From Harriotta raleighana (Eukaryota), in contig JBNZDD010013730.1 in NCBI GenBank assembly GCA_050575255.1, positions 8,214,012 through 8,278,011 of the forward strand: 64,000 nt of DNA, written 5' to 3'. Each line of letters begins with the position of its first letter. The stretch's first letter is position 1. Of the stretch, positions 6,349 through 62,276 are shown one piece after another. The translations under genes and the position numbers were made by a program. The notes below the pieces were generated by a model, which made no database searches, was not told the DNA's origin, and saw only the letters and a program-made list of their open reading frames with translations.

Positions 6349-6591
6349 ATGCATCCGTCAAGCTTCTTGCCGTTTCAGGCCCTTTGGCTGGCTGTAAGCT
6401 CAGCAATACAGCATTTCCCTTCATGGGGGCACTATGATATATGCAAAACTCAGATTCACTCTGATGAAGGGATGAGTTGGGATTACATGGCCTGCCAGCC
6501 AGAGGCCGCAATTGTGACGAAGTTCCTTAACGTGACCCTGGATCCCCCTAGCATTACTTGTGGAACTCCAGCTGAAACGTACTGCAGTTTG
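6349..6591 (+). CDS. NTNG1: Netrin-G1-like, first coding exon (81 codons: signal peptide + start of laminin N-terminal domain)
   Basis: ATG at 6349 in ACAACCATG context with an in-frame upstream TAG at 6217. Translation MHPSSFLPFQALWLAVSSAIQHFPSWGHYDICKTQIHSDEGMSWDYMACQPE...LDPPSITCGTPAETYCSL matches the netrin-G1 N-terminus (GHYDLCKTQI...WDYMACQPE...LDPPDITCG). It ends at the canonical donor TTG|GTAAGT, phase 0. Family is secure; strict NTNG1 orthology is not. Confidence 0.93.
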
Positions 6592-6826
6592 GTAAGTAAC
6601 ATCAGTTTTCTTGAATGTAATGTTCTGATTCACAGTTTATGAATGATGATGTGAAAGACCTTTACAAAATGTCTTCATTCTGAATTTCTACACATTCAGG
6701 GTCTGTGAACAAAATTGTATTTTAAATTTTTTTTAGCTGAAATATTAGCGCATGTAAACACATTTTGGGGGTAAATTATATGAGGCCCTGTAAAAAAATT
6801 TTTTGATAATATTTTATTTATAAGTA

Positions 6827-8272
6827 CAGTTAACCCTCATTGAACACGACTTTATCGATTGCAAATTTGAGGATACGCAACTAAACAAAAGCATAATTTT
6901 TTTGCGCAGCGCTCGTAAAACTTGTGTACAGTTAATCCTCGACGATCACAGGGTTACTTTCCTGGAATACTGCCCACTCAACGAAATTGCATTGGAGAAG
7001 CTTAAGAAGTAATGGGAAAAGGGGGTTTCGGGGTATCCAGTCGCAGGCTACCCATCTCAAACCTCCAAGCACAAATCGGGGAGAGCGGCAGGTGGGCAGG
7101 GGGGAGGGAACAGAAAGCTGCTCGGAGGCGGGGGGGACTCGGGGAGGTGGGGGCAGAAAACCGCTCAGGGGAGTGCTTGGGCAGAGTGCTGCAGGTGGTC
7201 GGGACGGGAGACGCAGAAAAGTTTCAGCGGCTTTGTTATCGCTTTATTGCTATAATAAAGTGATAACAAAGCAGTAAAGCAATAAAAAAAAGCAATATAA
7301 CAACAGGGTAGATTAGGCTATTTTACGTGCAATCTTGTCTCTCTCTCTTGACACTTCTGTTTACCATGCAATGCAATAGGAAAGCGTTATTGTATTTACC
7401 CAAGAATGCATTGCGAGCGGGGCCAGCCAGCCGAGGAATCGTGCGGGGGCCAGCCAGCATGTATACATAAGTTTTATGCGCGCTGTACAAAAAAGTGATG
7501 CTTTCGTTTCGAGTATACTTGAATTCGCAATCGACAAAGTTGCCTTCGACGAGGGCTAATTGTGTACACGCTGGCTGGCCCCCGCGCATGCGCACGAGTA
7601 AGAACGCCAATAGCTCCCGACTAAATCTGATGATTTCTCGGCTGGCTGGCCCTGCGCGCATGCATTCTTGGGTAAATAAAATAACTCTTTGGTTTCGGAG
7701 CATCTCATGCCATTGCATTGTAAACAGAAGAGAGAGAGAGAGACAGTCTCCTACAGTAAGTTAGCTTAGCTGTTAGTTTAATGCTTTATTGCTTTTTTTT
7801 ATTGCTTTATTGCTTTGTTAGCACTTTATAGCAATAAAGCGATAACATAGCTGGTTGTAACCTTTTTGCATCTCCCGTCCCAGCCGCCTGCAGCTCTCTG
7901 CTCCCCCCTGCCCCCGAGCGACTCTCTGCTCCCCCCCCCTCTGCTCGCTGCTCTCCCCGATTTCTCTCTGCCTCCCTCCCGGGCTCCCCCTGATTTACCC
8001 ACTTCCTGGGTGGTAGGAGAGACGAGAGCAGGAAGAGTGGGGGGAGGGAGAGCAACAAGAGCGCGGAGAGGCGGGCGGAGTAACCAACCAGCTGTAGCCC
8101 GCCTCAGTACGTACCTTGCATTCAGATGTCCCTGGAGGCTTGAGGTAGGTAGCCTGTGAATGGATTCCCCTAACCTCCCTTTTCCCATTGCTTCTTAAAT
8201 TTCTCCAACGCGATTTCGTTGAGTGCGCCGTTTTCCAGGAACGTAACCCCCGCGATCGACGAGGGTTAACTG
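6827..8272 (+). mobile_element. Non-autonomous Tc1/mariner (Tigger/pogo-like) element, outer copy interrupted by a nested copy
   Basis: TA|CAGTTAACCCTC ... GAGGGTTAACTG|TA terminal inverted repeats with TA target duplication; no transposase ORF. Confidence 0.85.
6929..7562 (-). mobile_element. Nested, inverted copy of the same Tigger-like MITE
   Basis: TA|CAGTTAATCCTCG ... CGAGGGCTAATTG|TG ends; 6929-7460 is the reverse complement of about 7566-8272, and about 7463-7562 is the reverse complement of 6827-6928. Confidence 0.82.
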
Positions 8273-9814
8273 TATTTAGAAATGGTGGTGGCATAATGTT
8301 TTGGCGCTTCTGTATGTGGTGCCATGACAGAGTGCAGTATAGGTTGAACTCCAATGCTGAGCTCCTGACAAGGTGCTGCTGTGGGAAAAGCACTGAACAG
8401 ATTATTCACAATCAATCAATGTTAGAACATTGGACTCCCGAGTCCACCCAGAGACGCAGATTCAATCTCCAGTTTCATATACCCACTGACATTAACCTGC
8501 TGCAAGCATGTGAAATCCAGGCATAATTTAATTTAGACATCCAAGTAGACAGCCTGAAAGAAAATATCTACTGCACTAATGCTTATACTTGAACACCTGA
8601 TTTAAGCAATAAAAACAAACAAACAAAAAGGGTTAATTTAACCAGTACGTTGGAACAACAGAAATCTACAGCACAGTGGGAGATGGTTCGTCACATTGAA
8701 GTGAAGGATGACTGCTTTAATAATAACCATTCCGATGTTTACATTTAATAGCTAGGCAGGAAATAAAATCCTAAAAAGGGCAAAAAATATTCTTTCCAGT
8801 CCTCAATAGAGAGAACCAAAGTTCAAATGCTAGTGCATGAATACAGAGATGGGATTCCTTGCACTGTTAGGGATTATGATAACCATTTTTGATAACTCTT
8901 GCTGGAATACAAAGGATAGGATCCAAGGCCTGTACAGGGCATCAGAGATTAGACAGATCAGCCCTCTCAAGTAGTCTGTGCTTGTCACTTTCTGCACAAG
9001 TCCAATTCCACAACTTCTGAGGATTCAGAAAACTTAATTCATTCCCACTCCATATACGTAGCCGCAGTGCTTAACAAATGGTGTAGATAAGGTACAAAAA
9101 CACCAGAATCTGCCAGGTGAATGTCCAGAGGTCTTTTGTCCCACTATATTTGCACAACGCCAACTTCTGAGTTTTTTTTAAAAAAAAGAAACGAATAAAA
9201 AGACTATCATTTGCCTCCAGCTCATTTTGCAAATTGCTTAAATAGACTGGTGGCTTTCAGATGGAAGAAGTCCCAAGTATTAGTAACATTTATGGCATGG
9301 AAGTGCTGATGATGACGGTGGAAATATGACCTTTTGAGTGCTATTATGGATTTTGTAGCCAATCAAAACTGAATTAAGAAACAAAGAGGCTATTAAACCT
9401 CAACTGTGCATGCAGTTCAGGCACAATATTTTGAGATGGACATGTATCTATTCCATTGAGAATTCAAGTATCATTTGGGCTCAGTGGTCTTAATTATGAT
9501 AAGATTAGTGTTGCAACCTTCTGGATGAATACTATTAATAAAGATGTGTTTTTAAACTATGATCATGGGCAATGTGATAAGTTACGTTCAGTGAAACAAT
9601 GAAGCTAATGCATAGATGAAATGCAGCAATACTGAAAGAATAGGTCAACCTAAATAGGAAGGGTTAAGACAATTAAATGCGTTATGTGATGCTCCATTAT
9701 TTTACTGTGAGTGGAGCCAGAATTTGTAAAAGTATGCCTACAATAATACTGTAGATGGTTACAGAAGATTATACAAATTGCAACTCTTTGAAAATCGAAT
9801 GGTTTACAAATCTA

Positions 9815-10050
9815 ATAACAACAACAGGAAAATTACATTTTTATAGCGCTTTCTAGTCGGGAGGATGTCCCAAGGTGCTGGACAAGCAGTGTTTCAGACA
9901 CAAGCTGGAATCGGGTGTGGTGGAGAGTAAGGAGGGAGGAGGAGTGACTGATGGGACTGTCAAAGTGGGGTGTCTTGAGATGGGACTTGAAGAAGGATAG
10001 GGAAGGGGCAAGGCGGAGGGATTGCGGATTGGATTCCAGAGGTTAGAAGA
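9815..10050 (-). mobile_element. L2 LINE 3' fragment
   Basis: aacaacaacaggaaaattacatttttatagcgcttt...gggaggatgtccc tail plus purine-rich antisense body. Confidence 0.8.
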
Positions 10051-10107
10051 GAAGTCTTGGAAAATGCTACTAATTTTTTACATAAATAAGAATTAAATAA
10101 CAATCAT

Positions 10108-10320
10108 CTTGACTCAATTGGCTGAGTGGCTCAATATTCTCATTCCTGGTTGAGGTTCTGCATTGGGACTATAAGGTCACATTCTAGGCTGACACCCAGG
10201 GCAATGCTGAAGGAGTACTACTCTGTCTCAAGTATCATCTTTTTAATAAGATATTAACGCAAGGTCCTGTTCAGATAGAGATTAAAATTCCTGTTCTTTC
10301 GGATGTCTTGGCCAACAAGC
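10108..10320 (+). mobile_element. Deu-domain (SacSINE1-like) SINE remnant
   Basis: ctaggctgacacccagggcaatgctgaaggagtact...aagatattaacgcaaggtcctgttcagatag...gtcttggccaac. Confidence 0.6.
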
Positions 10321-13300
10321 CTTGTATTATAGATGAGTAATGAGAGCCTCTCATTGTTTTTGAATTTGGATATATTACTTCCTCCAGCATCACCTGCATA
10401 CATATTGCTCAAAAAAGGACCGAGAAACAACACATCTGTAATTCATGGGACATGGGACAGCAGCCACTATAAACTGTGTTTTCACTTGGATTTCTATCCA
10501 GCAATTAAATTGCTGTGTCTGTATTTTTCGTTTCAATTCAACATTTTCATAGTCACCATATAGCTGCGATCCCAATCCCCAGTAAATTATGAAATTGCTA
10601 AACGGATTTGCACCAATTGTTTAAGATGCTGCAGAAACACTTAATTGATTAAAAGATTTTGTGCACCATTTGGTTGAAGTGGACAGGATGTGGGTGAGTC
10701 TCTTTCAAGATAGGTTGATTTTCTGCTGGGCTGTTTTGTAAGAGAATGTACATTAGGTATTATTTGTTTTGTAGCCTTCAATATCTGAATAGACTCAAAA
10801 TCCACGGTGTTGACTGTCGGTGCTCATTGTTCTATTGTCTCACTGACCTTGGCATAGACAGTGGTGCGGAACGCTCTTGGCAAAGCGACACGAGACAGCA
10901 GTGTCTGAGAGCTTAAATCCCAATAGGGGTTTTAGGATTGAATAGATGTGATCTATTTGTCACGGTCTCTTTGAGACCCTTAAACATGGTACTGTACAAC
11001 GATATTGTATTAGTTGTCTAACTCATCCAGTTTATTTCGTGTCAGAGAGTTTTGCCCTGATCTCTGTTGCTGTCATGGTTTTCCTCTCCTGAATCATTCA
11101 TTCACCTTGAAATATGGGTGTATCTGCCTGGACAATGAGTACCAGCAACCTGTTTGACCATGGTCAGAGGAGGGGAGAATGTCCAATTCTGCCCTCACTT
11201 TGATGTTCACAGATATGAATTTTCCAGCATTGCCGACAGGATAACAATCTGAAGGAGGAGATCTGATATTTCCTCTCTCTGGTGCAGGGACACACTGGCA
11301 CCACAGATAAAATAGACAATGGATCAAATCTGGGACCCCACAAATCTTCATGGCTGAGTATCACAATTAATTTACCAACTGATATGGCTTGGGTCACATA
11401 GGTTAATATAATCGATGTCTCTCATGACAAGGACCAATTTGCCTTGCTAAAAGCATGTGCTGGGTGACCAACAAATGGGCATTTTGTTTAAAGATTGCAA
11501 AATAGCCAAACATAGCAGAATTGCTGCGTACAATTTGAAGATATATTTATTGTACGGCAATTTTATAAAAGGTTATTGGAGAACCACTAAAAATATCTCA
11601 GACAGCACAAGCTGGAGAGCTCCATTGATTGATTGATAACATTGACCTAGAAGCAGAAGCTACCACAGAGAAACCCTTTGCAATAAGCATTTTTTAAAAA
11701 TCTTGTGTTGAATTGATGCCCTAAAATCAAGTGTGAAATGAAAGGATTCACAAGCCCAATTTATCACATATATGCATATAACAAAGCCCACAAAGAGTTT
11801 TACTTTAACCACTTTGCAACAACAGCAACAAATTACATTGGTACAGCTCATTTCACATCAGGAGGACACACCAAGGAACTGAGTTTAGTGCAAAAGATCA
11901 CTAAACTGATGCTTTTTTGATCATAATTTTATTCTCCCTGACAGTGTGATTTCATCAGAACTTAATTATGATATATAATCCAATGAGGTAATTCATATGT
12001 AAATTCTGAAATATTTCTACACATTAATTATCCTGTAGTGCACTTAATGACTTCCTCAGGAAAGCTGATAGTCTACGTACCTACGAGAGAAATGGCTCTT
12101 GAATTAATAATGATCCATATGTTGCATCACATATAAATTAAAATAGAATTTCATACAGATACATAAACAATTCCCAGCGTTATTAATTGCAGATGTAGCA
12201 TTGCTTTTCTTCCAAAAATAAATCATATATGATTATAACCTGTTACGATTATAACAATTCTGTGCAATTTAGAGGCCAATTCTGGCCTCTAAAGCTGATT
12301 GAATAAAGGTGAGATTACTGCATAGTTTCATAGCATAGTTAGATATGTGACCAAGAAAATGAACAAAATTATACAATATTGTAATAGTGTTGAAACTAGA
12401 TTAAAAATTCCAGTGCTTGCTAATTGTATTACTAATTTTATGTGTGTGAGAATGAGAACATTGTGTTTATGAGAAAGCAGATTTAACTCTTTGCAAGATC
12501 AGTGCAACTGTTTTGAGATGGATTGCACAGTATTGCTCAGCTCCATTGTTAGTGCTGCTTGTGTCTATTTAAGATGTCCTTCAGCAGTTTGTATGCCACA
12601 AAAAAGGATGTTCATCCTCACTGTTACACAATGCTCAGTGTAGTATACCCTTCCCCTCACACATACACAGAAATCTGTGAATACATTTTTGTATAAAATA
12701 ATTGCTTTATTTTTATTGTGCAAGCACATCACGCAATCACATGGAATACAGTGCATTTGTAATATGTGTATTGATTCTAAATACAAAAGAGCAAGGAAAA
12801 ATCTAAAAATTATTGTTTTGCCTGATTTTTAATACAACAAGCTGTGAATTTGAAATGCAGGATATTTGTTTAATTATTAAAATGAAGTACTATAGGGAGG
12901 TTGAACACTCCTTCTAGCTTTTTTCCTATGAGAGCAAAAACATTATTTTAGTGTATCTTCCACAATCATTGCCTACCCATTTACCTTGACGTGGTCTGCT
13001 AGGTTTCACCTTCAGGTAATCCTTGATACAGTATTATTGTTTAAGTAGAAGATTGACATTTTTATATTGCCCACCTACATATTTTTGTCCACAATCATTT
13101 TTATTGCTTTACATTACAAACCATTTATATTTCCAGGAAATGAATAACTCCCAAGAGTGATGTATTTTGGTGGAGATAATATCAATATCCTGCGGATGGA
13201 AAGTGCATCTTAATTTATCTAATGGTGGATTTTAATTAAATTACTGTGCTGACCTCCAAGCATGCACGTTTATTATATTATTTGACCTCTTGGCAGCTAT

Positions 13301-15484
13301 GAGGTTGGGATTGCTCAGAATGTTAGTAAAAGCTATATGTATTGTGGTGTCCAAATTGCTAGAGTTATATAAAGAAAGCCTAGAGAAACTGTGGCAATCA
13401 GGTTGTAATCGCAACGCACCCAAGTGCGTGCAATACAATGCGTCTTACTGTGGTGAGCTGTCTACAGCGAGTTGGTTCTCTAATGCATTCATCTGCATGC
13501 TGTGGGATTTTATTGTAATGCTAGGTGACACCACGGTATTTTAAAATGTAAGGCGAATCCTAGCCAGGATTGTTGCTGACTGATCCATTCTAATAAGAAT
13601 ACCAATTTGCATTATTCATTCGATAAGGGCACTAATTCAAATTCTTGTTCAGGCTGTCTCTGCCTATTATTGCTAAAAATCCTTGTGTTTGGGTGGAGGG
13701 TCATTTTGGTATCAATTACTTGGAGACAGATTAGACGTATTCATATTTTGCAGATTTTTATCATTTAAATGTCCTTTGTTTTTTTCATTTTTATTCTCTA
13801 TATTCCTTTTTGTTGTGCTCTTCGGTGGTTTTATTATGCTTTCTGAATGTTGCCATCTAATTGTGTGTAACGTGTTACATATTGCATGTGTTTGGGGGAT
13901 AGAGAGTCTGGTGGATTTTCTAAATGGTGAATAGATCAATGTATTACTATACTCCACATGATGGGCAGAGCTAGCAGACCTCCCAGCTGTGCAAATGTCA
14001 GTGAATTATTCCACACAATGGTGGGCATCCCAAATAGTGCAAAGATCAATGAACAGCTCGGGAAGCCCTTGTTCAAATCAATATATCATATACATTCTGT
14101 TTGGAGCAGATATCTCCTTTGTAGCTGAGATTCAGGAAGACTATTAGGAGCCATACCCTGCCAGGGTCGATGATTGGGTTAGAGCTTCTGGGATGCTCCA
14201 GATATAAAGAGTAGAAAACATTCACCTCTGACACGAGAAAAAAGTATGGAATACAGTGCTATTGGCAATCGCAGAATAGGTGTTTGTGTTTGCTGTTGTA
14301 CTCAATGATGAGAGAAACTGTTATCATTAGGGAAGTTTTTTTAGATTGCAATAGTACGAATAAAGTACATGATCTAACAGTAGCGGAATAATACAAAATA
14401 ATTAGATACAGTGCTTTCAATATGGATCATTACTAAAAGCTTTAGGCAAGCTACTTAGCTTTAGAATTGCCATAGTTCAGTAGAAATGACTTGTTAAACA
14501 TCCATTACATCTGGCTAACATCAACACATTATGATAAAAAGCTGATAGTTGTTGTTCTTTTTATTTGCTTGTCCCGGTATAAATTGCGTATGTTAGGTCA
14601 GTTCATGAATCCACTAGGATTCAGGCCAGCCAAATTCAATTTACTTAGAGGCTCTCTTTAGGGACCATACTGTTAAACTGTGCCCATTTAATCCAAGTTT
14701 CCACAATGGGATAAGCAATGAACTGAATCGGAAAACACAAATTGTTGGAATTTGCCCAATTCTGAACAATGAAATGTGTTATGTCTATGTCTGGAAAATA
14801 TTTTCATAAAATTTAGGATTGTGCATTAATTGTAGAATATATTTGGAAGTAGTTTTTTTATAGTTCGCTGATCTTCTTGTGGTAAAATGGAATATGGAGC
14901 GTTTAAAAGTGTGGAATATAGCAGTTTAAAAGTACTGTATTTGGCTGTGGGTGTGTGACTTTCAAATTTTAATTTCCATGCTTTGAGCAAAGGGATTATT
15001 TTGAATTAGTCAGTAAAATTACAAGTGACAAGAAACTCAGGAGGTCCTAGAATGCAGATCAATACTTGGAGAAAGAACATCTTCTTTGAAATGTGTATGA
15101 AAGAGAGAAGGAACTACGCAACAGCTGGGTCAGGAAAGAGTGAAAATCACACCCTTTGCAAATTATTAAAAAGGACTTAAATAAGGACTTTTGACTTCCT
15201 CCACTAATGTTTGAACCATCTATTCATTTTGAAGAATAGTATTTGGAAAGAAACTTAAAAGGGTTTGTTTCAATTTCATTATCCTTGTCATTGCATTTTG
15301 TTGAAGCCTGAAGGAACTTGGGCGTTGGACCAATTGTGCATGATTTTGCCTTTGAATTTGAATTTGAAATCGTTTGAATTTGCCTTGTTTTATTTTAAAG
15401 AAAATTCCCTAAAACACCAAACATCAAATTCAAAGTGTTAAAAAAAAATGTTTTAGTATAAATTTCCCTTCCAATTTTTTCCCC

Positions 15485-15725
15485 TTCATTCCTAGGTGCA
15501 GATTCATGCTAATAATCAGTTCCATGGCTATCTGGTTTCACATGGAAGTGGCCATTTTCATGCACGAGGCTAAAAAGAGAATGTTGACAGGCATCGTGAG
15601 GTAGCAGCACTGAGTGTGATTCTGTCCTCGGCCAGGAACCCTGCATACATCTTTATCAGGGCTCACTGTTTGGTGATCAGGAATGGGAATGTGGCTAATT
15701 TTCCCTTCCTAAATCCAGGGGAGCC
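15485..15725 (-). mobile_element. Old SINE-like repeat fragment (related to 26950-27100)
   Basis: Shares a gatcag...ggga...gg...attt..c..cct..cc/ctagggg segment with the 26950-27100 element, which has a B-box-like head. Confidence 0.35.
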
Positions 15726-15729
15726 AAGG

Positions 15730-16557
15730 ATTATAATAATAATCCATGCATTTGATCTTCTAGATGCCTCAAAGCTCTTCACAGAATATACTGTAAAGTG
15801 AATAGACTATATACAGTAAAAGCCTGTTTATCCGGCACTCTCGGGATCTGGCCAGTGCCAGTTAAACAGCTTGCCAGTTAAACGTTTTTTTAAAAAAATT
15901 AAAATGAAAAATTATTTAACACATACCATATTAATAATAGACTAAATAATAACATAATAATAATATTGTATGGGTACTTTATTGTAAATGTTGTACACTG
16001 TACCACATAAATAAGACTAAATATTGTAATAACAGATTCTGTAAAAGAATATTGCATTGGTACTTTATTGTAAATATTGTACACTGTACCATATAAATAA
16101 TAGACTAAATTACAGTAATAACAGATACTATAATAACAGAATATTGTATTAGTACTTTATAATTTATACTTAACTTCTGCAATGAGGGCCGCCATGGTAG
16201 GAAAAAAAACGACAGCGCGACTTTTAGGCTGTCTTCGCGGCAAGCTGATATACCTGCACAGTATTCGCATGCAACAATCGATTCATTAAATGCACCACCG
16301 CTATTCTGCCAGATAACTTCCAGTTAATCGGATGGGGACTTTTTTTCAACATGCCAGGTTATACGGATGTTCTGGTTCATCGAGTCATGGATAAACAGGC
16401 TTTTATGGACGAAATGTGGCAGCTAATTGCACACAGCAGTGTCCCACAAACAGTCGTGGATTGAAATGACCAATTTTTGTTTTTATTGTTAGGCATGTAG
16501 AGTAAAGAAACTTGCCCAAGGTTTCACCCTGCCGAGAATTGAACCCAGGTCTCTCAC
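15730..16557 (-). mobile_element. tRNA-derived SINE split by a MITE insertion
   Basis: Tail ataataataatccatgcatttgat at about 15733; body resumes after 16407 (gtcccacaaacagtcgtggattgaaatgacc); antisense B box gaattgaacccagg near 16540. Confidence 0.82.
15814..16407. mobile_element. Tigger-like MITE (family 2)
   Basis: TA|CAGTAAAAGCCTGTTTATCC ... GGATAAACAGGCTTTTATG terminal inverted repeats; internal ~80-nt tandem units. Confidence 0.82.
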
Positions 16558-17654
16558 AATCTTGGTTTAAAAAAATGTTTTAAATACCTAAGATATTGAA
16601 TGCCGATTGTGAATTTGGGTACTGAATGGAGCAGAATTTTAAATTTGTGTTACAAGATCAATGACATAAAATTATTTTGAAGGTGTTTCTTTTGTCTCGC
16701 TAGGGCTGTCTGACTTGACAGCTCCCTTTGTATTGTGACTTTAATTAATACAGTTCCACTTTAAATATCGACTTGAGTTATCATCAGACTACCTGCAAGA
16801 GCAGAATTTTTATATATGCTGTATATAGTATATATTAGATTTTGCCAAAGCTGACTAAGAAGTGCCTATTATTTTTAAACATACTCCACTGTCTCAGAAT
16901 GCTTGCATGTAATACCAATTAATCTTTTAAGTTGTTCACTAGGGTGCTGTAATTGTCAATTTACTGATACATATCTACCTGCATTAGCAGCTAGAGAGGT
17001 ACTTGTTCCACACCCAAGTCTTATGTCCCTTGACATTGCGATTCCTTGGAGTATGATCTATCCATACTTAATCTCTGTTGTAGTGAATCATCACTCTTAT
17101 TATACAATATCCTGGAAGAGCAGAATACATATGTGTCATTGTTGATCCAAGTGACCAAGAAGTATCTCATTTACTATTATTACATGTATTCACTGTGTCT
17201 GTCATTAGTTGGTACTATTTAAAAATTTTCCCGAGGGTGCTATGACATTGAAGTAACTGCCTCCGATTTGTACCAACATTACAGTCTCATGCTCTTCTTG
17301 GCTGCCTGTTTGTTTGTTGCCTTGTGCCAGTGGCTTACTCTTAATTGCTTCATGCAAGAATGAACACAAAGTGGGAGTATGGGCCATTTTCCCATTCCTA
17401 TCTAAAGAAGGAGGAAATAATGATGAGATCAGGCCGACTTGCAGTAAATATAAAATGTTGGAGCCCATTGTAGAAAAAATACTGAACATCATTGCCATGA
17501 AGAATTGCTGTGTTGGCAAATCGCTGTTCTACTTCAGTGAACCGTTTCCCACAAAATGGTATGTGTCAACTTTGACTTTGTTCATATCCGACTCAACACT
17601 GCGTTTAAGCCCCATGTCGTTCCTTAATCTCATAGTCTCAGCTAACACTCCAGA

Positions 17655-17730
17655 GCAACAACAACAAAATTACCTTTGTATAGCACCTTTCATGTCTGGA
17701 AGATGTCCCAAGGTACTGGAAGCAGGGCAG
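17655..17730 (-). mobile_element. Short L2 3' end
   Basis: caacaacaacaaaattacctttgtatagcacctttcatgtctggaagatgtccc. Confidence 0.72.
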
Positions 17731-17744
17731 TATTAAGAAGTGAA

Positions 17745-17878
17745 GTCTCCTTGAGAAGAGATTTTAAGCCAAGGGCACAGTTGCCTGTGTGGGGGGTGCT
17801 AAAGAGCCTATAAGACTATTTGAAAAGAAAAGGGAGTTTCTCCAGATAACCTGCTACAAATTTTCCACATTGATCAAC
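17745..17878 (+). mobile_element. Deu-domain SINE fragment
   Basis: gagattttaagccaagggcacagttgcctg...ctatttgaaaagaaaagggagtttctcc. Confidence 0.55.
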
Positions 17879-17883
17879 CATTN

Positions 17884-18212
17884 TGCCGGATAAACGGGGG
17901 ACAAATTGCCGAAAACTCAACATAAAAAATTAACTTATTTTAAAACATACCATGTTAATAATACACTAAATAGTAACAGAATATTGTATGGATACTTACC
18001 AATAAAGCATTCCAGCACACTCGGTAAAAAGATCGGTAAAACAGCATTTTTTACAGAGCGGTAAAAAACCCAAGTTTGTAAATTTAATAAGTGTGCCTGC
18101 GCACCATTGCACGCATGCACAAAGTGAGCAAACTCGCGATTGCTGGAATGGGGAATTGCCCCGGGAGGGGGTCGAGCAATCCGATTGATCGGCTCGCGGA
18201 TAAACTGGATAT
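17884..18212. mobile_element. Partial Tigger-like MITE (family 2), truncated at contig join
   Basis: Shares gccggataaac and cataccatgttaataatacactaaatagtaacagaatattgtatgg with the 15814 and 25429 copies; begins immediately after N at 17883. Confidence 0.65.
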
Positions 18213-18829
18213 AGGACCTTGTTGGCTGTTGTGTTTGCCTGCAAATACAGTCACCATTGTTAACGCTAATTGTTTGGGAAGCACTCTCAGATATTTTGAT
18301 AAAGTGCTATAAAAGTGGAAATTCTCTGAACAACAGGGAATGTGTGCTTCTTGTTAATGAGATTAATAAGATAACATTTAACTAGAGTCTAACAAAAGAG
18401 CCAATTACCAGCAAAGAATAGGCTATAACTGCCAAAAGCTTGACTCCATACACAATTACTGTTATATGTCTTATTGTTCAAAATAGTACAAATGTACTAT
18501 TTTTAACACATAACTGCTATGACCTTGTTAATACTGGGAATGGTGCTCATTTGCTGTCCTCAATGGTAATATCTGTGTCTGACAAGAACTATGCTGCTGC
18601 TTTCAGTCAAAGCCTTTGCTGTCCATATCACTGATAGTATCAGTATTGCTATTGTGAACGCAATTCACACGTCATAATTATTTTCAGCTAATTTCTCTAT
18701 AAATTTCTGAAGATCACAAGGGAGGATTTAGCTGAGAATGTCTCTTCAACCTATTGATCTTAATCTTCCACAATTGCATTATTGTATGTCAGTAATAATA
18801 ATTAAACTATGACATTGTTTCTTAAATTA

Positions 18830-19130: not shown

Positions 19131-19189
19131 TCTTGGCTCTTAACAGCAATCTTTTGGCACAGCTGCCCAATCATCATTGGATGATTAGT

Positions 19190-31848: not shown

Positions 31849-31871
31849 TATCCCCTAATCCCTCTAAAAAA

Positions 31872-49375: not shown

Positions 49376-52300
49376 TCCTTCAGATTTATTTGTCTGAATG
49401 GACCTTTTGTGGAGCAAAAACTAATTTCTCTGTTATGAACCTAGCAATCTCCAACCAGGGTTGAAATCTGCTTTAGTGTTTTTTTATTTGATCCCCTAAA
49501 AAAGTTAATTGTGAAAAAAACTGTATTGTCCTAATGTAACAACACTTCATTATCTGAGAAATGTTGAATTGTAAAATCCACCATTTTGATGGTGTCGGTA
49601 ATAAAAGTAGGCAAAAGGTGGGGGAGGTGAAACATACTTTTTACATTATTTTCAAAGTGTCCTTTTTATTCATTTTCCAAGTTGCGATTTTATTTTACAT
49701 AATTTTTTACATAAAATTGCAACCCCAAAAAGATATGCTTATGAAAAATAGTATACATCTATTATAATTAATACCAGAATTTTTCATTTTCATTTTCAGT
49801 TTAGGATTTCATAAATTAGACATTCTAAAAATGTCCAGATTTAAATTATGATTTATTGTTTCTTCAACCCTTAAACAGTATCCAAGTAAATGCTTTTATT
49901 TTCGTACCAATTGTATCCTGTCTCTGCATCTGTTATCCTGGGTTGAATGTTTCAGCCAGTTACTGGCCCAATAATGCTGATTATTTTGCACTTGCCAAAT
50001 CATTAACCTCCTAATGGAGCACTCGATGCTGTAAAAATTAACTATAACAAAGCAATTGATTGAATTGCAATGTGATTTGACAGCAATTTACAGGATTGTT
50101 CTTTATTAGGCAACTAACTTCTTTACTTAATAATGTCCAAATTAACCAAGGGATTTTAGCTTGCAAATTGTAGGTAGTTTAGCTGGGGATAATGATTTGC
50201 TGTTTAGTCACATAAAAGCCACACAAAACAATATAAATCCAAGACAGCAACACTTATAACGTTGAAAATGAAATAAATGTCAAGTGTTTGGTGGATTTGC
50301 TGAAATAACAAGGATTAATAAGTTGTACAGCTTACCCTCCAGGATTGCATGAACGGCTTCCATAATATATGATGCTTATATTAAAACACCCTCCCTCCCT
50401 GGGCATTAGTATAGACCAAATGACCTAAAGCAGCAAACATATTGCTTCTCAATCCTTGGACTATGGGGTAAGGTTTAATTTATGTTTCTTAGTGTGGTGG
50501 AATTGTTAACAATAAATCCTATGTATGAACACATCACAGTCAGGAGTTCACAATAAAAGACAGCTGTAAGAAGGGATTCAGTGATAGAGCTGGCAAGTTG
50601 CATGCTTCAAACCACAATGCTTTTAGATTGAACTCCTTCTACTGGTTGGCTCTCATATTTCCCAACCGTCAGCGTGATATATTTTGCCAGATTTCATCTG
50701 GGTTATTAAATGTAGTATCCTGCCTCAGGGAAAACTTGCCTTTCCATTTGTCTTGCTTCACGACAAATATACCTTCTGTCAACTAAACCATGAAGTAGTG
50801 TTGGGTCAGAAGCCGTGCAATTGTCTGTCTATGTCCTGCTTGTTTGTCATCCCCAACTGGTATCAATGATTCAAAGAGGGGTGTGCATTGGTGAAGGGGA
50901 ACAAAACGTGGATCTATTCAGGAGCATTATAGAAAAGTCCATTCAAATACAGTGTGCTGTTACCTACCAACATTCCAATTTTTTGTTAGGAAAACCTTGA
51001 GATTGATGAGAAGTATATGGTCCAAATATTCTACAAACATCCATTCTATCTGAAGAAAAGACAAATGATGTATTTCAATCAGTCTATGTATCCCTATACT
51101 CTAGCGTCTGGATGTCATAATTGTAGGTCCATCTGGCTCAGATTCTTTATTGAAAAGCTGATTGATGGCTGGTGGGTTCCTTCAGTATAATATTAACAAG
51201 AAATATATTCAGGGCATTACTCAGCAGAGCAAACACCTTATCAGAATTACTTTGGTGCTTCATTGCAGATATGCTGAAAATGGCCCTTCCATTCATGTAT
51301 TAATTACAAGGTTACTCGTCAGACAAATTGTTCAATGCCCCCATGCAATCCAACACCTTTTCTTAAACATACCAATGTATGTAAAGTCGTATTGTCATAT
51401 CTCAAAAGTGGACCTTATTGAGGTCTTTGTATTTCTTCTCAAACAGACAAACAGAGTAATTCATGGCTTGCTGAGGGGTAGGTTGCTGGATTAATTTTAA
51501 GATGTGAACATTAAGAGTTGAGTAAGCAGGAATGTAATAAGCTCCAAATGACAATGGATACTGACAATCAATCACTGTCATAAAAATCTCACCAGACTAT
51601 TTTGTTGCTGTGCAAATGGTATAGGTTTTTAATACACAGACACACACAGGAAAGTCTTAGGAGTCATTCTTGCGAATAGTATTAAAACATTCCGGTTAAT
51701 CAGCCTCTGTCCAGTCAAACAATAGCTGAGACAAGATAATAGTAATAGGCGTGGGAGTTGATGAGAGAAATCAACAAACTTACTAAAAAAAAAGCAGGCA
51801 CATGGTAAATTGTGATGCGATGTAATAACAGCACAAACTGATATTTCACTTCACAGAACACAAACAACAGACAACACAATTTATGGAGGGCTGTATTTGT
51901 GCAATGTGATTCATTTGTATCTGACAAAGATTAGGAGACTTACAAAACTGTATCCTTCAATTTATGTACAATGTGAATTCCACCAGATTAACATTTAAAT
52001 GACTGAGCTCTAGAAGGTGTAAAATATTGTCTGCTGCACTGTAAATTTAGCTTCAAAATTGTGTTTTTACTGCATGGAAAGTTCTAAACCCATGAACCAC
52101 AATGGCTTGAAAATCTGATTCAAAGTAAATGAGTAGAAACATAATATCATGTCTTGAACAAACATCTGATATTAAAATATGTGTTCTACCTGATTAAAAA
52201 TATACATTTTCAAAACTGAAAAATGTCATTATTTCATAATTCAATTTACGTTTTAAAAATTCACTCTTTTCAGTAGATTCAAGTTAATTGAAGTTCTTAT

Positions 52301-52439
52301 AAATTTTATCTAAAATTAAACATTCCTGATAATTGTTAGATTGTAGACCAAATTTATGCACATATAATCTACCTTCATTATGAGATGGTTGACATTACAG
52401 TACAGTAATTATACAAGAGAATATAGGACCTTGGTCATA

Positions 52440-52805
52440 AGCCTTGATTTGATATTGTGCTTATAATATGAAAAAAAAACTCAAAGTGATTCATAAGAAT
52501 TAGCTGTAAAGTGTTTTTGGAGACTTACACAACAGAATTTGCATTCAGCAGTGTAACACAAACAACCATGAAATCAACAACCAATTTATCTGGAGAATTG
52601 CTGGCTAGGACACTGAGTGACATGGGATCTTTAATACCCACCTGAATAGGAGATGGAACCTTGGTTTTTAACCTCTCATGACAATGCAGTACTGAATCTG
52701 CACTTGTTGTGTCAGCCCACACTGTGAGCTCAAAGTCCCAATGTGGTTTGAACCCGCAAGTTTCTAACCTAGCAGCAAGAATGTACCAACTGAACCAAGC
52801 GGACA
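52440..52805 (-). mobile_element. Near full-length Deu-domain (SacSINE1-like) SINE
   Basis: Minus strand: ggttcagttggtac (A box), gggttcaaacc (B box), ggctgacac, ttcaggtgggtattaaagatcccatgtcact, tail atatcaaatcaagg. Confidence 0.75.
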
Positions 52806-53569
52806 CTTGTTCTGCACGTTAAGAAGTTCGTATTATTTATTGTTTGTGTTCGAAAGCTTTCACAATAACCCACGTCTTGTTATAAGATGAAAAATGCTTG
52901 GATCACAAAGGGCAAGGTTATGAGAGTGGAGTTTACTTGTTGACATCATTTTGCCACTTCACGTTAACAAAACATTAAGGGACTTCAAAAGGCACTTGAA
53001 TGAGAATTTTTAAAATTAGTTGTGGTTATGGATTATTGATTGCTTTGGAAGCTGTGAAACTTGAGAGGAAATCTCACTCACAGATGAAAACACTGCAGCA
53101 GACAAATCATCCACTTCAGAGAAAATCAAATTGATCTTGGTGTATGTATTTTTTGTCTTTTTCTCTTGCCAGATCAATATTATGTGATGCATCCATAGAA
53201 AAGACTGGATGTCAATTGACAGAAGTGGCAAAGGAACCAGTCTGACATGGGGCTACATTCTGTTGTCAGTCAGACTTGAGACATTTTTTGCAGTGTTCCA
53301 TAATTCAAGACATTATGCGCTGCAATTGGTTCACTGTCACGAAGCTTATTTTATCATTTTATTTTGTCTTTCTCTGAGCATTTTTAGTTCAACTCAAAGG
53401 GGGCACTTTGGTACAGAATGTAAGGAATTTGTAAAGGGACAATGGTGTCCCAAGTTTTGTGGCAAACATTTTTTATTCTTTAACATGTGACAAATGCTTC
53501 AGTGACAAGTCATTTTAACATGTGATGGAGGGGAAGCAACATTTCCCCTTCCAGCACAACACCAACATG

Positions 53570-53700
53570 TCGTCTGTTGTTCTGCTGCCCGGTACTGGGG
53601 AAGATTCTCTGTTAGTATCCACCTGAACAGGCAGACTGGAGCACAATTTAACATCTCAATCAAAGTACGGACTGTATTTGGTACCAACATAGAATTTCTA
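53570..53700 (-). mobile_element. Deu-domain SINE fragment
   Basis: Minus strand gagatgttaaattgtgctccagtctgcctgttcaggtggatac. Confidence 0.55.
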
Positions 53701-54781
53701 GAGCAGGGATTCCCTCAAGGACTATAAGATTGTGCCAAAAGCACAAATTTCCCCAGTAGGATCCAAGGTTATATGGGTATATTTAAGGACATGCTGCTTT
53801 TGCAGGTGGTGTGTTGCTCAGTTATGCTGCACTGTCTCAGCCATCTCCACATTCACTGCTCGCTTACTTTCTTTGTATTCTGTAGAAAATCAACTTGGTG
53901 CTAATTTGGAAACATTTTACAGTGAAAAATCAAATCTTATACAATATCTCGGAACTAAAGAATTATCTCAAGGCAAAGTGGATGGAGCCAATGGAATAGC
54001 ACATCAGAAATGAATCCTAAGTTATAAAACTTGTACCTCAAGCACAAATATATGTTCAGCTATCATATACCTCAAAGTATATCAGCCTTTAAATCTTTAC
54101 AATTTCCTTTAAATGGGCATCATAGCACAGTTGTAATCTATTTAAAGCTAAATAAACAGCCACAGCAAAAATGGCCTATATAGTTTGTGTATATTCATGT
54201 ATTTTCTCCCAAAGAAAACCAAACATGTTTTTGCAAGTTATTTTCATTTTGTTTATACTGTCACTTGCCAATTGAAAATGCAGAAGTAATGATACGTAGC
54301 GACTCAATTATGATATAAAGTGTACAAAAAGTTTATAACTTCGGAGTTCCTCAGGCTTTTTACAAATGCACACACAAACAAAAGGATTGGTTGATATAGA
54401 ATGCAACAGGCAAATATGCACAGAGAATTATGAGATGGAGGACAGTGTAAGAAGCTACAGTATCTTTCTGTAAGACAAGAAGCTGAATATGGGAGTTCCA
54501 ATGTGAGAGGGGTCTCATAAGTGTGTTCATAGCTGGCCACCAATATCAGATAATTCACTGATGCTTCATAACACATTCAATGTGATAATTATCACATGAT
54601 AACATATTTTAGAATGCTGCTAATGCTACCTCCTATGGGAACTCGCATAATCTGTTAGTATATAAAACATGTTAGGTGAGAAAATTTGTACAAACTTTAG
54701 TGGAAATGTCTGCAGTCAAATAAGAAGCTGAATGAACGGGTCCAAGGTCATAAAGGGATTTCAGATGAGGTACTGTCTAAG

Positions 54782-55020
54782 AATAATCCCTGCATTTAAT
54801 ATAGTGTATTTCACATCTTCTTGACGTATCAAAGCACTTCACAAAATATACTGCAAAGTGAATTGACTATACATTTGTGCATGAAATGTAGCAGCCACAA
54901 ACAGTCGTGGACTGAAGTGATCAATTTTTATTATCCTTTATTCTTTAGGGATTATTATCAGGCATGTAGCATAAGAAAATCTGCCCAAGGTTTCACCCTG
55001 TTGGGAATCAAACCCAGTTC
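54782..55020 (-). mobile_element. tRNA-derived SINE, nearly complete
   Basis: Tail aataatccctgcatttaatatag, body ccacaaacagtcgtggactgaagtgatc, head tgcccaaggtttcaccctg...gaatcaaacccag. Confidence 0.82.
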
Positions 55021-55639
55021 TTTTGTTTACTAGAGACCAATTTTAAGTCAAGAAAAGTCAAATGCAATAATTCAGCTTGCTGTGAGAAAATTATCAGTAG
55101 AGCAGGCTTATACTCGACCCAAGGAACATCAGATGTGCAATTCAAATGGTGTTAAGTATTAATGTCTGTTGGTGGGTCTTAATGTTGCATTCTATGCGAG
55201 TTCATGGAACATTTTTAGAAAATTAAAAATAGAATTTAGCTTTTTTTGTGGTTAAAGTTTTATCATTTGAATTGAAACAAAGCCCCTAACCTAAGGCAGG
55301 TCATCAGAGTCTCATTTCTACCTAGATGAATCGCAATTATGTTTTTGAGAAATTGACTCATGTAATTGCTGAATGAAAATAGAGCAAAGAATCTCTGCTT
55401 TCATCCAAGCCTCATTTGCATACCACATGATCTTTGGTTATCCCCTAACAAGGGTCCAGTAAATTAATGAATCTCCTCAAAGTCATGACTCCCGCTTTAA
55501 ACCTTGCATAGATATTTGAATCATTCTAAAACCTAAGAATAAAGTAATGAGAAAGTATGACCCAGATAGATGATGCCTGATGTGTGATATCTGAATGTTA
55601 CCATTTTCTCAAAATCTCCGTGTCTGAATTTTTTTTTCA

Positions 55640-55722
55640 AAGTTTAAGATCCTTGTCCTCACTCTTTAAAACCCTTCACAGTCTGGCTCCTCCCTACCTT
55701 TGTGACCTACTGAACCTTCACA
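55640..55722 (+). mobile_element. L2 fragment
   Basis: Encodes FKILVLTL-KTLHSLAPPYLCDLL. Confidence 0.7.
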
Positions 55723-56229
55723 ATCTTAACAACTTATACCTTTGATACACAGATGGTTTAACTCTGGTAGCTTTTAAAATGTATCTTCACAAATCATAAA
55801 CTTTCCAGAAAAGTTGTAGTCTTCATGATTTAATTGGACAGGATTGCTCTTGTTCCATTTTGCAGATTAGAATAGCTTTTGTCTGTTAATGTCATCTTCC
55901 CCCTTTTAATTTGGTTTAATTTAAATTGACTCTAACTATCCTAATAATGATTTGCACTGCTAATTAGCAAGACCACATCCCTAAGTGTACTGAGTATGAT
56001 AAGGGGAGATTAGCCTTTCAAAGGAAATAGATATAGCTTTTTAGTAAACAGATAATAATATTGCTATTTTATGCTTTTCCAGTGAGTGGGAACAGGTTGA
56101 TGTATTGAGATAGAGATTGTGCTATCACGAATTGTACTTCGATTGTACTTCCCACTCTAATCTTCCCAATAATGGGAAGATTAGAGTGGGAAGTAAGGTA
56201 TACAATTATCTTAAGTAAGGTATACAATT

Positions 56230-56623
56230 ACCCCAAAAGCTGCCGAAACCCTGGTCCATGCCTTTGTCACCTCTCAACTGGACTACTCCAATGCCCACCT
56301 TGCCTGTCTGCCCTCCGCCACCATTCGTAAAATCCATCTTATACAGAACGTCCACATTCTACTGGGTCTGGACTCCTCCTTGTCTCCCTAATCTCCTCTC
56401 GGTGGCCACTCTTTCTACCACTAAACCCGGAAATTATGGAACTCCCTCCCTCAATTCCTTCACTACACCTCCTTTTCCATCTTCAGGTCACGCCTGAAGA
56501 ACTTTCTGTTCGACTGTGCTTACTTCCCTGTCCTCCTTGCTCGGCCCCGGGCTCCGCTATTGTGAAGTGCTCTAAGATGGCGACTGGCATGGAGGGCGCT
56601 ATATAAATGCACGTTGTTGTTGT
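56230..56623 (+). mobile_element. L2 LINE 3' fragment, internally deleted
   Basis: Encodes AAETLVHAFVTSQLDYSNAHLACLP; tail gagggcgctatataaatgcacgttgttgttg. Confidence 0.88.
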
Positions 56624-59479
56624 GCAGCACAGGGGGACTGGAAAGTTTAACAGAATGAGGAAGCTGACTGGATCAGTACCTGTTTTGTGCCGCTCTGGTT
56701 CTGTTGAGCAGACTTTTATGAGAGGTTAAGATACCATTTGGGGTAAAAGAGGGAAGGTTGCCTGGTATATCCACAGTTCTAGACAGATGTTGTACCTATG
56801 CATCATTCTATTCAGGGCCTTGCAATGTCCTCCCAACCTGAAAGGCATTATAGAAGTGTAATATTGTTGTTATGATTGTTGTTATCATATTGCTTTACCC
56901 ATGACTGTAGGAATATCCACACATCTGTTTTCCAATTAATTCAAAATGCTGTGCATTTTAAGATTTAATTTTTAAAAAAATATTACTTGCTCTTAACCTT
57001 TCTATCAGGTTGCAACTGAGAAATCCAAAGATCAAATATACTGCTCTACTTTACATTCCAAACATATTTTTAAAATAATATTTTATCATGAACTAAACTA
57101 AGCAAATTATAAAGCTATAACATGATCTAACTATGCATATCAAATAAATTCTAATATGACAAAATATGAAAATGAATTATTCCAACCAAATAAGATTGCA
57201 TTTGCAGCTAATGCCGATATTGAGCAAAATACTAATGAACTTCTCCTGACCGAATTTCTCGTAATACCCTTTTTCATTCTAATTACATTTTTTTCCGCTC
57301 ACTTCACTCTAGTTAGTGAACCAGTGGATTTCAGTAACTGGCGAGCAGGCTCATTCATGAACGGAAACAAATTAGTTCCCGTTGTGATCTTATTCCACCG
57401 AGGCTCAAAAACATTTGTCAAACTGGCCAGCCAATTTTTGTCAAGAAGTGCAGTTGAGCTTGTTAGATCATTGTTAAAGCTTCTCAGGATGAAGACCAAC
57501 AAGTCTGCACAGATAGGAAGAGAATAACTTTGGGTTATTTACTCCAGCTCTGACCTTGTGTTAAAGCCTTCAGTGAATGAGAACATATGGGAAAAACAGA
57601 AGTTGTCAAATATAAGTAATTATTATTGTGGAGTATCTACCTATTCCCCTTGGGTCACCTTTGGATTTTGGTGCAGAAAGGCATAGCTATGTCATTATTT
57701 GCTTCCTGCACATTTTCAGAGATAGCAGTCTGCCTGGATGCACCTCAGGAAATGTGCATTTTAAAAAAGCTCATACAGTCCTAAAAATAAAACCAAAATT
57801 ATGTACCAACATCCTTGGCTGTTTGGTTGTGAGGCGGGATAGTAAAGCATGAAAAAAAAGTCTTGAGTCCCCATATTCACCTGGTTCATTGCAAGATGGC
57901 AATGTCAATATTTATTGCCTTGAGGATATTTAATCTCCAAGTGTCCATTTATACCAATGAATTGAATGCTCTACCAGTAAGCTCTACCACCCATTTGTTT
58001 ACCATTCACGTTTATTACTGTTACTGTAGAATAGATTGTAAGTGATTTCAATATGATTGCTTCTCTAGCAGATCTCTTCAAGGGAACAGGGTTTATCTGA
58101 TGGCAAGAATATAATACTAATGTACTTTGTTGTAGGGAGCATCTCAGCTGCAAAATGCTTTAATATACTATGCTTTAATTTTCTGTCACTTTTTCTATCA
58201 AATGAAGTGACTATTAATTATCCAAAGGCTTTTTTGCTTTTCTAGAAGGTTCTGAATTCCAGGCATGTAGGCAAAGACATTCCTAGCTTCTCTCAACTAA
58301 CCAGATGATTAAATCCTGTTAATTTTGACTCCGTCTCCAATGCAATGGGGGCAGCAGATGCCTAGATTATGCTCCTGAGCTTGTCTGACATTGTGCTGCT
58401 AATGATTTTTGCTGAACAGCACAAATGTGTAGAGTGGGCATTTTATGCATGAACACAGATTTGCTCAATGTATTTGTGGACAGATAGAAGCCTGGGAGTC
58501 CTATCAATCTGTGGAATTTGTCCCTCCAATCGCCCCTCCCTGCCCTGCTTTCAAAGATAAAACAAAAGTCATTTTGCGCTGCAATTGACTTTCCCAACAG
58601 CACTCCTGAGAAATATTTTCTACTGATAATCTCAGTGCAAGAGATGAGACCTCAGTAAATGCTCTGAATTACATAAAACAAAAATGCTGCAAAGTGACAA
58701 TGGAATATTTCCTAGCAAGTAGGGGTTATTCTTCCCATTTTGATTTTTCAAATCATATGCTGTGTGGTAATTAATATATTTGAAATGTTTTCATGATGTA
58801 AACCTATTTTTCAGTTTACACAGTTATCCTTCTCTTGGGCACTATGGAGGTATAATTAAGCAGATGTCTCGCCATCCAAGACTGGCTAATATATGATGGA
58901 ACACATATGGTTTCGTTATTAAGTGTCCCCGAGTAATGTACATTGGGTCCACATTATTCCACATATAATCCCACAACAAAGAACCTAATCAAAACCATAA
59001 AATTGGTTTGATAGGGAATTAAAAAAGAAACAAATCGAGCTGTTGTGGAATTGTTCAGTGTCCCCAATTTGGCATTGTTTCAGTGGCTTCAGGGATGGAT
59101 AGAATTTAACTGAAACAAGGGACTACTGTTACAGCATCTGTCCCAGGGATTGGTGTACTATTCTGAGTTTTAACCTCAGTGTTAATATTTTACTTTTGTA
59201 TCACATTGTGAGAATATAGCAGAACAAACATGGTGCAATTCAATAATTTTTTTTAAAAGTTTCTGCTTTAAAGCTTCTTTGTAAAGTCACCCTATTTTAA
59301 AGGGACACCATCCACATAAAAAAGTGGACTGCAAATCTTATTTGCATTTGATTTCAAATGTATAAAATACATTGAGATCCAACATTGCATCATTTGCTTG
59401 ATATGTAAAACTGTAAACGTGTAACCTAATGTTTCCTGGAATTTGTGAACAGTGGCTAGTGATTCGCTCTCATCATGTT

Positions 59480-60330
59480 CAAAATGACAGTTCTATTTGA
59501 CAAGAAGCACTGTGACAAATTGGTGCACTTGAAAATGCTTTGGCAATTGCGCCATTGAAGATACTGCAGTGAATTAAAAGAAAACACTGTCTTAGTTGCT
59601 GGTTTGGTTGCTGATAGTAACAGCTTCTTAACTGATGTACAATTACTTCCTCAATATCTTGCAAAATATTGCCAATTTGAACAAATATTTTAATTTCTTG
59701 AACCATTAAAAACTTCACTTGGCTCAATGTTGGAGACTTCGAGCTCATACTCTAAACTTTTTGATCGGCCAACCAAATATTGTGAATGTTTATGTATTGA
59801 ATGTTTCTTTATTCTTTTTATCCCCATTATGGGTGTGATACCAAATTCAAGGATTACTATTTGTTTTGAGTTAATAATAATTAATAATAATAATACATTT
59901 GATATAAGAGCCTTATCGGTGCAAGTTGTAGGAGTTGTATTGCTTGAGTCAGACACTAGAGGATAGCTATCAACCACAGAACAGTACCCAAGAATGGGTC
60001 AGAACCATCAGCAGAAAAGGAGAGAAAATTTGACACCAAAACAATGCGGCATTTCTCAACCCAATGTGAGAGACCATGTGACTTTCCCAATTCCAATTCA
60101 ATGACAGATCCCATGCTGTCTGTAAGAACACCGAGTCGTAAGAGTTCTTCAGTCTCAACAGCTTTTCTCTTTCACCTCTATTACATCTCCAGACCTCAAC
60201 CAATAGATTTTGTAATTTAATCACATGATGATTTATAGGGCAACCATGTGTGATTATTCGCATCTGTTGCTGATGGACCTGTGGGAGTAATAATGGCAGG
60301 TCAGGAAAAAAGCTGCAACTTTGGTGGTGC
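59480..60330 (-). mobile_element. Possible decayed Penelope-like element (GIY-YIG region)
   Basis: Minus-strand fragments RGEREKLLRLK...LQT...LN, SQYLVGRS and GAIAKA resemble GIY-YIG endonuclease motifs; weak, by eye only. Confidence 0.25.
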
Positions 60331-61299
60331 ATAGCATATGTCAGGGAAAGTTCTTTATTCTGGTTAAGGAACCTTGGAAGATTTTATGAAGATTTACTGA
60401 CAGTTGATTCCAGTTCTGTCTTTAAATACTTCCATTTTCATACATGTGTCTTTTGAAAACAAGAATGCAAGGGCCAAACTAAGTGTTGGAGGAATAGCTT
60501 TAACATCATTTGTTAACTAATATAAATTTGTGTTTATCCTTTCCCTCTAAGCACGTCTAATATATGACAGTTCCAGCAAGCTTTAATTTGCATTGAACCT
60601 ATTGCATGTTTTGAATAAGTGGTTAGTAGTTGTCATCAGGTAAATGTATAAGTTTGTGAGGTACAACTATATAAGTATTCCTATTGATGGTTTGAAATAA
60701 TTTTCTTTACTTTGCATTTTTGTGCTCATTGTTGCTTGTTTTCTGGTCCTTCAACCCAGACTGATTATTCATGTCACCAGAATTTGTATTCAGCTAATGT
60801 ACAACAACAATAACAACAACTTGTGGGTATATTGCACCCTTTACACCGGACAGTGCTTTGGAATGCTTCAGTGTAGAATTGAATGTCTCAATCCATTAAT
60901 ATACAATTTGACAATCCTCTGTGAAGATAATATATCTTTCAGTTAGCATTGTAGGATAAGGTTATGCAGCATATAATTATAAGTACCCTGCTCCAAATAC
61001 TGTTCTAGGGTCTATTGAAATGCAGTGTAATGTGTTTAAGTACATTGAATAAAAATGCCAAAGTGCTAACTCTTACACACTGTAGTCTGTGGATTAGCTA
61101 TAAACTAAAAGGAATTCTGGTAACAGAAACTCCTTGAAGAATAATGATCTTTTTGCCTGTGAGTTATTGAGCAATATCTTTTGTAGTGCCAAATGACATA
61201 TTACAGAAAAACTCCATCTCCTTCACAATTTGAGGGCTCCACATGATTAATATCATTTTATAAATACTGAGTTTCCCAAGCTGGTTTCACATTGTTGTC

Positions 61300-61490
61300 C
61301 TATGTCAGCCAGGGGATAGGCTTGTGAAAGCAGCATGACATAAGAGCCCAAGGTCAGAATTGTGAAGGACTGGGGCAGACACCAGGAGGTATTTCTTTGC
61401 ACAAAATGGAATGCATAGGTGGAACTTGTTGCTAGGAAGAGCAGTTGAGGCTAGGACATTGAACTCATTAAGAAACAGTTTGGATATCAG
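61300..61490 (+). mobile_element. CR1 LINE 3' remnant
   Basis: caggaggtatttctttgcacaa...tggaacttgttgctaggaagagcagttgaggctaggacattgaactcattaagaaacagtttggata. Confidence 0.65.
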
Positions 61491-61632
61491 GCAGTAAGAT
61501 AACTATTCTTGAACAATGAACTCCATATTACAGGATTTGTTTGTATTGCCTGAATTTCACCCTTTGGTTGAAATGAATTTTGTGGACCGAAATAAATTGG
61601 TTCCTAATTTGCTTCTCTACATCCAATTTCAG

Positions 61633-62276
61633 GAAAACCCATACATGTGCAACAACGAATGTGATGCAAGCACACCTGAGCTTGCACATCCTCCAGAGTT
61701 GATGCTTGATCATGAAGGACGAATTCCAAATACGTTTTGGCAAAGTGTTTCCTGGAAGAACTACCCAAGGCCTCTGTTGGTCAACATCACGTTATCCTGG
61801 AACAAAACCATCGAGCTGACTCAAGACATCGTCATCACTTTCGAATCTGAACGTCCAGAGCAAATGATCCTTGAAAAATCCCTGGATTACGGTCGAACAT
61901 GGCAGCCATACCAGTTCTACGCGGCCGACTGTTTAAACGCTTTCCGAATGGAGCCCAAAACAGTGCACGATTTGTCTCAGAAGTCAGTCCTAGACATAAT
62001 TTGCACAGAGGAGTACTCTAGAGGCTACGTGTGGAAAATGGACAAAACGGTCCACTTTGAAATCAAAGACAGATTTGCACTTTTCGGGGGACCCTATCTC
62101 CATAACATGGCTTCACTTTACGGACAGTTAGACACGACCAAAAATCTAAGGGACTTTTTCACTGTCACAGACCTGAAGATCAGACTGCTTCGGCCTGCAA
62201 CTGGTGCAACAATTATGGATGAACATAATCTGTCAAAGTACTTCTATGCTATATCCAACATCGAAATACAAGGAAG
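61633..62276 (+). CDS. NTNG1: Netrin-G1-like, second coding exon (644 nt, laminin N-terminal domain)
   Basis: Acceptor ...ctctacatccaatttcag|GAA, phase 0, compatible with the upstream exon. Translation [24 protein letters not shown]...[17 protein letters not shown]...[13 protein letters not shown]...[12 protein letters not shown] is netrin-G1-like. Donor AG|GTAAGA at 62277 (phase 2) lies at the conserved G-R boundary before the LE domains. Confidence 0.96.

Follow-up and report, generated by a model that had tools for sequence, protein, structure and literature searches.

A netrin-G gene of the chimaera Harriotta raleighana is very probably an NTNG1 orthologue whose netrin-G2-like residues are likely retained ancestral states

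Does a cartilaginous fish keep a third netrin-G gene? The question is raised by a 64,000-nucleotide stretch of the genome of the chimaera Harriotta raleighana (contig JBNZDD010013730.1, here C13730; C13730:8214012-8278011, forward strand; hereafter the window), which carries the beginning of a netrin-G gene with a netrin-G1 (G1) backbone and scattered residues of netrin-G2 (G2). A preliminary description proposed that this gene is a 'netrin-G3', an ohnologue from whole-genome duplication, and offered as a fallback a G1 that retains ancestral states; a third netrin-G, if true, would have meant a lost vertebrate wiring gene. We find instead, with a probability of roughly 0.96, that this cartilaginous fish simply has an ordinary NTNG1 orthologue here, its G2-like residues being likely retained ancestral states. 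The name 'NTNG3' was absent from the literature searched, in which uses of 'netrin-G3' probably refer to the ligand NGL-3.

Two coding exons on the forward strand of the window define the product. The first coding exon (exon A, 6349..6591) has 81 codons, with its ATG at 6349 and a phase-0 GT donor, and the large laminin N-terminal exon (exon B, 61633..62276), bordered by AG before 61633 and GT after 62276, has 214 codons plus 2 nucleotides and matches Pfam PF00055 (E = 1.5e-47). As the preliminary description had it, the two splice into 295 residues (81 + 214 codons), and their junction (YCTLENPY) agrees with elephant-shark G1 proteins. The best solved-structure match of exon B was G1 (374 bits), then G2 (297 bits). 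The closest named protein among the matches listed was NTNG1 of the elephant shark Callorhinchus milii (XP_007885484-6), with 95% identity over exon B, 94% over 354 residues and, for exon A against its residues 1–81, 90%; it comes from a different holocephalan species and differs by about 6% substitutions, but has the same loops, including a 12-residue loop II, and the same exon set, short alternative exon included. Mammalian G1 (PDB 3zyj) has the same domain order and the same PRMT6/VAV3 neighbours but is 70–72% identical, with a loop II one residue shorter than that of the window protein and a different sequence in loops II and III. Netrin-G2 (PDB 3tbd, 3zyg) shares the length of loop II and 19 scattered residues, yet is 56% identical and forms a separate clade.

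We searched the genome (a 1.1-Gb assembly of 13,732 contigs) with exon A, exon B and the full-length C. milii protein. Each of the three protein searches found the window locus and one other strong locus only, the next matches being netrin-1-like and other laminin-domain loci with 38% identity or less. Candidates for a third netrin-G (L003–L006) translate as netrin-1-like or other laminin-domain proteins, named by resemblance, and were rejected. The second locus (L002; C13702: 3,518,448-3,556,608, large exon 3530552-3531187) is the G2 orthologue of the same genome: in the large exon its identity is 70% with mammalian G2, against 59% with C. milii G1, and it lies between MED27, about 95 kb upstream, and, some 9 kb downstream, a SETX-like helicase gene that has PF13087 exons and, as its weak best match, Sen1 (E = 7e-4). 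Support for a third gene would have come, according to the preliminary description, from separate loci for NTNG1 and NTNG2 in this genome; the one other locus found is G2. This chimaera NTNG2 is itself fairly divergent, with an end branch of 0.32; like tetrapod G1 it starts exon B with G, and it is without one residue after FALFAG. One MED27 exon occurs twice, at C13702:3423953 and 3428390, 4.4 kb apart and with identical scores, and a VAV2-like SH2 exon is doubled in L052; both are likely assembly duplications. A VAV2-like gene lies on the same contig as the second locus, 2.5 Mb from it.

Gene order around the window gene is that of mammalian NTNG1, not that of a different paralogon (for example beside VAV1), as a separate ohnologue would have. 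An intronless PRMT6 lies upstream on the same strand, its end 29.5 kb from the ATG; it scores 450 bits to PRMT6 versus 222 for the next PRMT and is the sole intronless PRMT among 12 matches. Downstream, tail-to-tail on the opposite strand and ~30 kb beyond the last netrin exon, a VAV gene extends from 8,463,538 back to about 8,376,100, and 61 of the 67 residues of its first exon (the CH exon) are those of solved VAV3 (135 bits versus 107 for VAV1). The CH exon decided this assignment; the SH3 exon, tried as a discriminator between VAV2 and VAV3, was discarded, with no VAV3 SH3 among its 7 solved matches. The pig gene order is given as VAV3-NTNG1-PRMT6 (PMC7118202), and in the mouse Prmt6 is described as adjoining Ntng1, with Ntng2 flanked by Med27 and Setx (PMC4000137). 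A third VAV gene in the chimaera, on C13517, is VAV1-like, a weak assignment (117 bits to VAV3, 112 to VAV1).

Phylogenetic trees also put the window gene with G1. Each homologue search listed its best 120 matches (of 869, 750 and 888), and of about 600 fetched proteins 54 entered a main tree of 56 proteins and 354 columns; most near-identical isoforms and one protein, P0240, are not in the trees, and four rows carry our own labels, two as mammal-type G2 because their loop fits that of solved G2 and the others as unnamed teleost-type G2. In the 56-row tree the nearest neighbour of the window gene is C. milii G1 (99/96), within chondrichthyan G1 (100/98) and a single all-G1 clade (100/98; 91/96 in a 24-row tree), and the second locus branches as sister of the remaining G2 rows (95/98). 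Constraining the chimaera genes to group with G2 was rejected in the approximately unbiased (AU) test (p = 0.012, 24 rows). P0240 (CAM9139032.1) is labelled Lampetra planeri, yet it is frameshifted and parts of it are nearly identical to teleost G1; it is probably a contaminant.

The G2-like residues were placed in a wider set of G1 proteins through 139 columns that separate mouse and orangutan G1 from mammalian G2. In 70 of these the window protein is G1-like, in 19 G2-like and in 50 neither; the corresponding G1-like/G2-like counts are 85/18 in reedfish, 77/17 in lungfish, 90/10 in a caecilian and 117/4 in a turtle. G2-like states are common to shark, ray, bichir, gar, teleost and lungfish G1, and at 12 of the 19 sites bichir, gar or lungfish G1 has the same state as the window protein, as does hagfish at 12 of the 19. 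Their losses follow the order of the species tree: K283, N290 and E292 occur in chondrichthyan G1 only and were lost on the bony-vertebrate stem; E82, R211 and the 12-residue loop also occur in bony fish and lungfish, with E82, R211 and one loop residue lost on the tetrapod stem; F176 is also present in amphibians and was lost on the amniote stem; and N138 is also present in reptiles and birds and was lost on the mammal stem. Judged from these alignments, the G2-like residues are likely ancestral, with stepwise replacement in the G1 of bony vertebrates and tetrapods, which bears out the fallback of the preliminary description. Its account of a G1 backbone with G2 residues holds for all motifs at the places that it named, except that I31 of YDICK varies across G1 proteins (I/M/L/V) and is uninformative.

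Loop II has a similar distribution. The segment between EEYS and FEIKDRF, correctly described beforehand as one residue longer than in G1 and as long as in G2, has 12 residues in the window protein, 11 in G1 of 3zyj and 12 in G2 of 3tbd, and the extra residue sits in NGL-binding loop II (62020..62049, forward strand). Loops II and III are defined in PMC3230378, where both are reported to carry NGL specificity; in the window protein loop II is one residue longer than in tetrapod G1 and equal in length to that of G2 and of fish and lungfish G1, and loop III (TGATIMDEH; 62200..62226, forward strand) is of the fish-G1 type. The 12-residue form was found in 120 of the best 120 matches listed in the first homologue search, in all 47 further matches listed in the second (one of them a G2) and in 64 of 69 cluster members (5 unread). 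Among new tetrapod matches listed, 112 of 113 have the 11-residue form, the exception being a frog, Discoglossus pictus (P0510), in which loop II has independently lengthened to 12 residues and position 82 is D.

This division, with a distinct loop II of 12 residues in all fish G1 listed and one of 11 residues in nearly all the tetrapods listed, could also be read as hidden paralogy, with fish-type 'G1' as the whole-genome-duplication sister (G3) of tetrapod NTNG1 and reciprocal losses of the two. Several points speak for such a reading or otherwise weigh against ordinary orthology. The window protein is nested in G1 rather than forming the clade of its own that the 'netrin-G3' proposal looked for, though the AU test lets fish-type G1 stand as a clade apart from tetrapod G1 (p = 0.108, 24 rows); lungfish fell outside actinopterygians plus tetrapods, with weak support (91/79); and no coelacanth, squamate or monotreme sequences were among the matches listed. 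Position 290 is D in both hagfish and amphioxus, which leaves the ancestry of N290 without outgroup support. The assembly, in 13,732 contigs, could be missing a further netrin-G locus, and the VAV1-like gene on C13517 runs into an assembly gap that makes its 3′ flank unreadable; a tblastn search of C13517:1-60000 with four netrin-G proteins found no netrin-G remnant beside that gene, in a region where N fills 8,300 of the first 10,000 positions. The tree leaves the fish-clade placement standing, and synteny is therefore needed to exclude hidden paralogy, against which it argues strongly: the flanking genes are PRMT6 and VAV3, as in pig and mouse, and fish gene models of the 12-residue-loop type are annotated under the name vav3b. 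Moreover, amphibian G1 is intermediate in its G2-like states, no species among the matches listed has both loop types, and a degenerate pattern search found three NGL genes in the chimaera genome, as in mammals, with best solved matches to the mammalian set LRRC4C, LRRC4 and LRRC4B. We regard hidden paralogy as very improbable. The same small chance attaches to a G1/G2 mosaic, in which NTNG2 would have converted parts of the gene in the lineage of cartilaginous fishes. Six sites (199, 283, 290, 292, 333 and 339) are G2-like in chondrichthyan G1 only, three of them within ten residues, as conversion might leave them; but hagfish has three of the six, the window protein is no closer to its own genome's G2 (55.6% identity) than other G1 proteins are (55–60%), NTNG1 and NTNG2 are on separate contigs, and a placement with G2 was rejected.

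With the gene taken as NTNG1, the loops can be set beside the receptor encoded in the same genome. The chimaera NGL1 (LRRC4C; L072, on C13683) has G205, E225, M251 and H252 on the patch facing loop II, a patch that has none of the four human-NGL1 residues, is NGL2-like at three of four and is identical at all four to the animal's own NGL3. Human-NGL1 residues are kept at five of nine positions facing loop I and five of seven facing loop III. In human NGL1, replacing the patch with NGL2 residues is reported to reverse netrin-G preference (PMC3230378). The comparison suggests joint change of ligand and receptor, with an older interface perhaps still in use in the fish pair. More speculatively, and with the odds in our view against it, fish netrin-G1 and NGL-1 may keep an older, less exclusive code, the sharp G1–NGL1 versus G2–NGL2 selectivity having been rebuilt near the origin of tetrapods; the route would comprise a one-residue deletion in loop II and its rewriting, with changes in the facing NGL-1 patch.

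Within cartilaginous fishes, additional G1 copies appear to be younger. Six galeomorph sharks (Heterodontus, Cetorhinus, Carcharodon, two Scyliorhinus and Stegostoma) have G1-like genes on two chromosomes in RefSeq (protein pairs P0380/P0449, P0384/P0443, P0481/P0482, P0438/P0483, P0387/P0437 and P0474/P0461), often with several gene models per chromosome. These copies fall into two clades (99/88 and 97/92), which unite at 99/94 inside elasmobranch G1, and each of the four rays sampled has a single G1 cluster; the pair therefore appears to be a duplication of the shark lineage and not a whole-genome ohnologue. A catshark transcriptome table names Ntng1 and Ntng1l, with opposite left–right signs in the habenula (PMC11589584), and from their accession numbers we infer that these transcripts represent the two shark clades. 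Larger numbers were seen in Heptranchias (P0033, P0048), with G1-like models on 11 different small scaffolds and 8 distinct LamNT-exon peptides among the 29 proteins listed, and in Pristiophorus (P0378), with 11 distinct LamNT-exon peptides among the 18 proteins listed, an apparent recent amplification that could be a real array or uncollapsed haplotypes. No shark netrin-G1 expansion was found in the literature searched by title, although the Ntng1/2 tree of PMC11589584 (Supplementary Fig. 18) may already show the shark duplicates.

The remaining structure of the gene is that of the netrin-G family. Exon A, which has no Pfam match, probably encodes the signal peptide, judged from its hydrophobic N-terminus, and the start of the laminin N-terminal domain. 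A 55-kb GT–AG intron (6592..61632, forward strand) follows, containing repeats and one assembly gap (N at 33096–33851). Just inside it lies a 123-nucleotide inverted repeat pair (6951–7073 and 8127–8249, 84% complementary), part of a longer repeated element, and further on a 292-nucleotide direct duplication (30753–31044 and 31538–31829, 96%). No sequencing run with the sequence is recorded as RNA; a contig of a related organism, from a run guessed to be RNA, fits exon B with 28 differences in 647 bases (matched 61632–62278), one end running on into exon-A sequence and the opposite end into the next exon. The gene extends past the window, where a protein search of the genome placed further exons at about 8,287,670, 8,311,450 (short, alternative), 8,322,600, 8,331,350 and 8,345,350. 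Over six exons Pfam finds Laminin_N, three EGF_laminin and one final EGF, the family order of LamNT, laminin-type EGF repeats and EGF-like module, and the last exon encodes a hydrophobic stretch and then a stop, leaving no space for an NTR domain. The same layout is described for netrin-G in PMC10084454.

By homology, the product would act like other netrin-G1 proteins, as a glycosylphosphatidylinositol (GPI)-anchored protein of the axon surface that binds NGL-1; the anchoring and the presynaptic, axonal location would hold, and loops I–III would bind the concave leucine-rich-repeat face of postsynaptic NGL-1 across the synapse. The locus carries a caution, in that a fish protein set against human paralogues alone can show retained states that mimic a new paralogue. 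A slowly evolving G1 such as this one makes the old residues of the NGL-binding loops recognizable, and with fish proteins the origin of the G1/NGL1 versus G2/NGL2 selectivity becomes testable.

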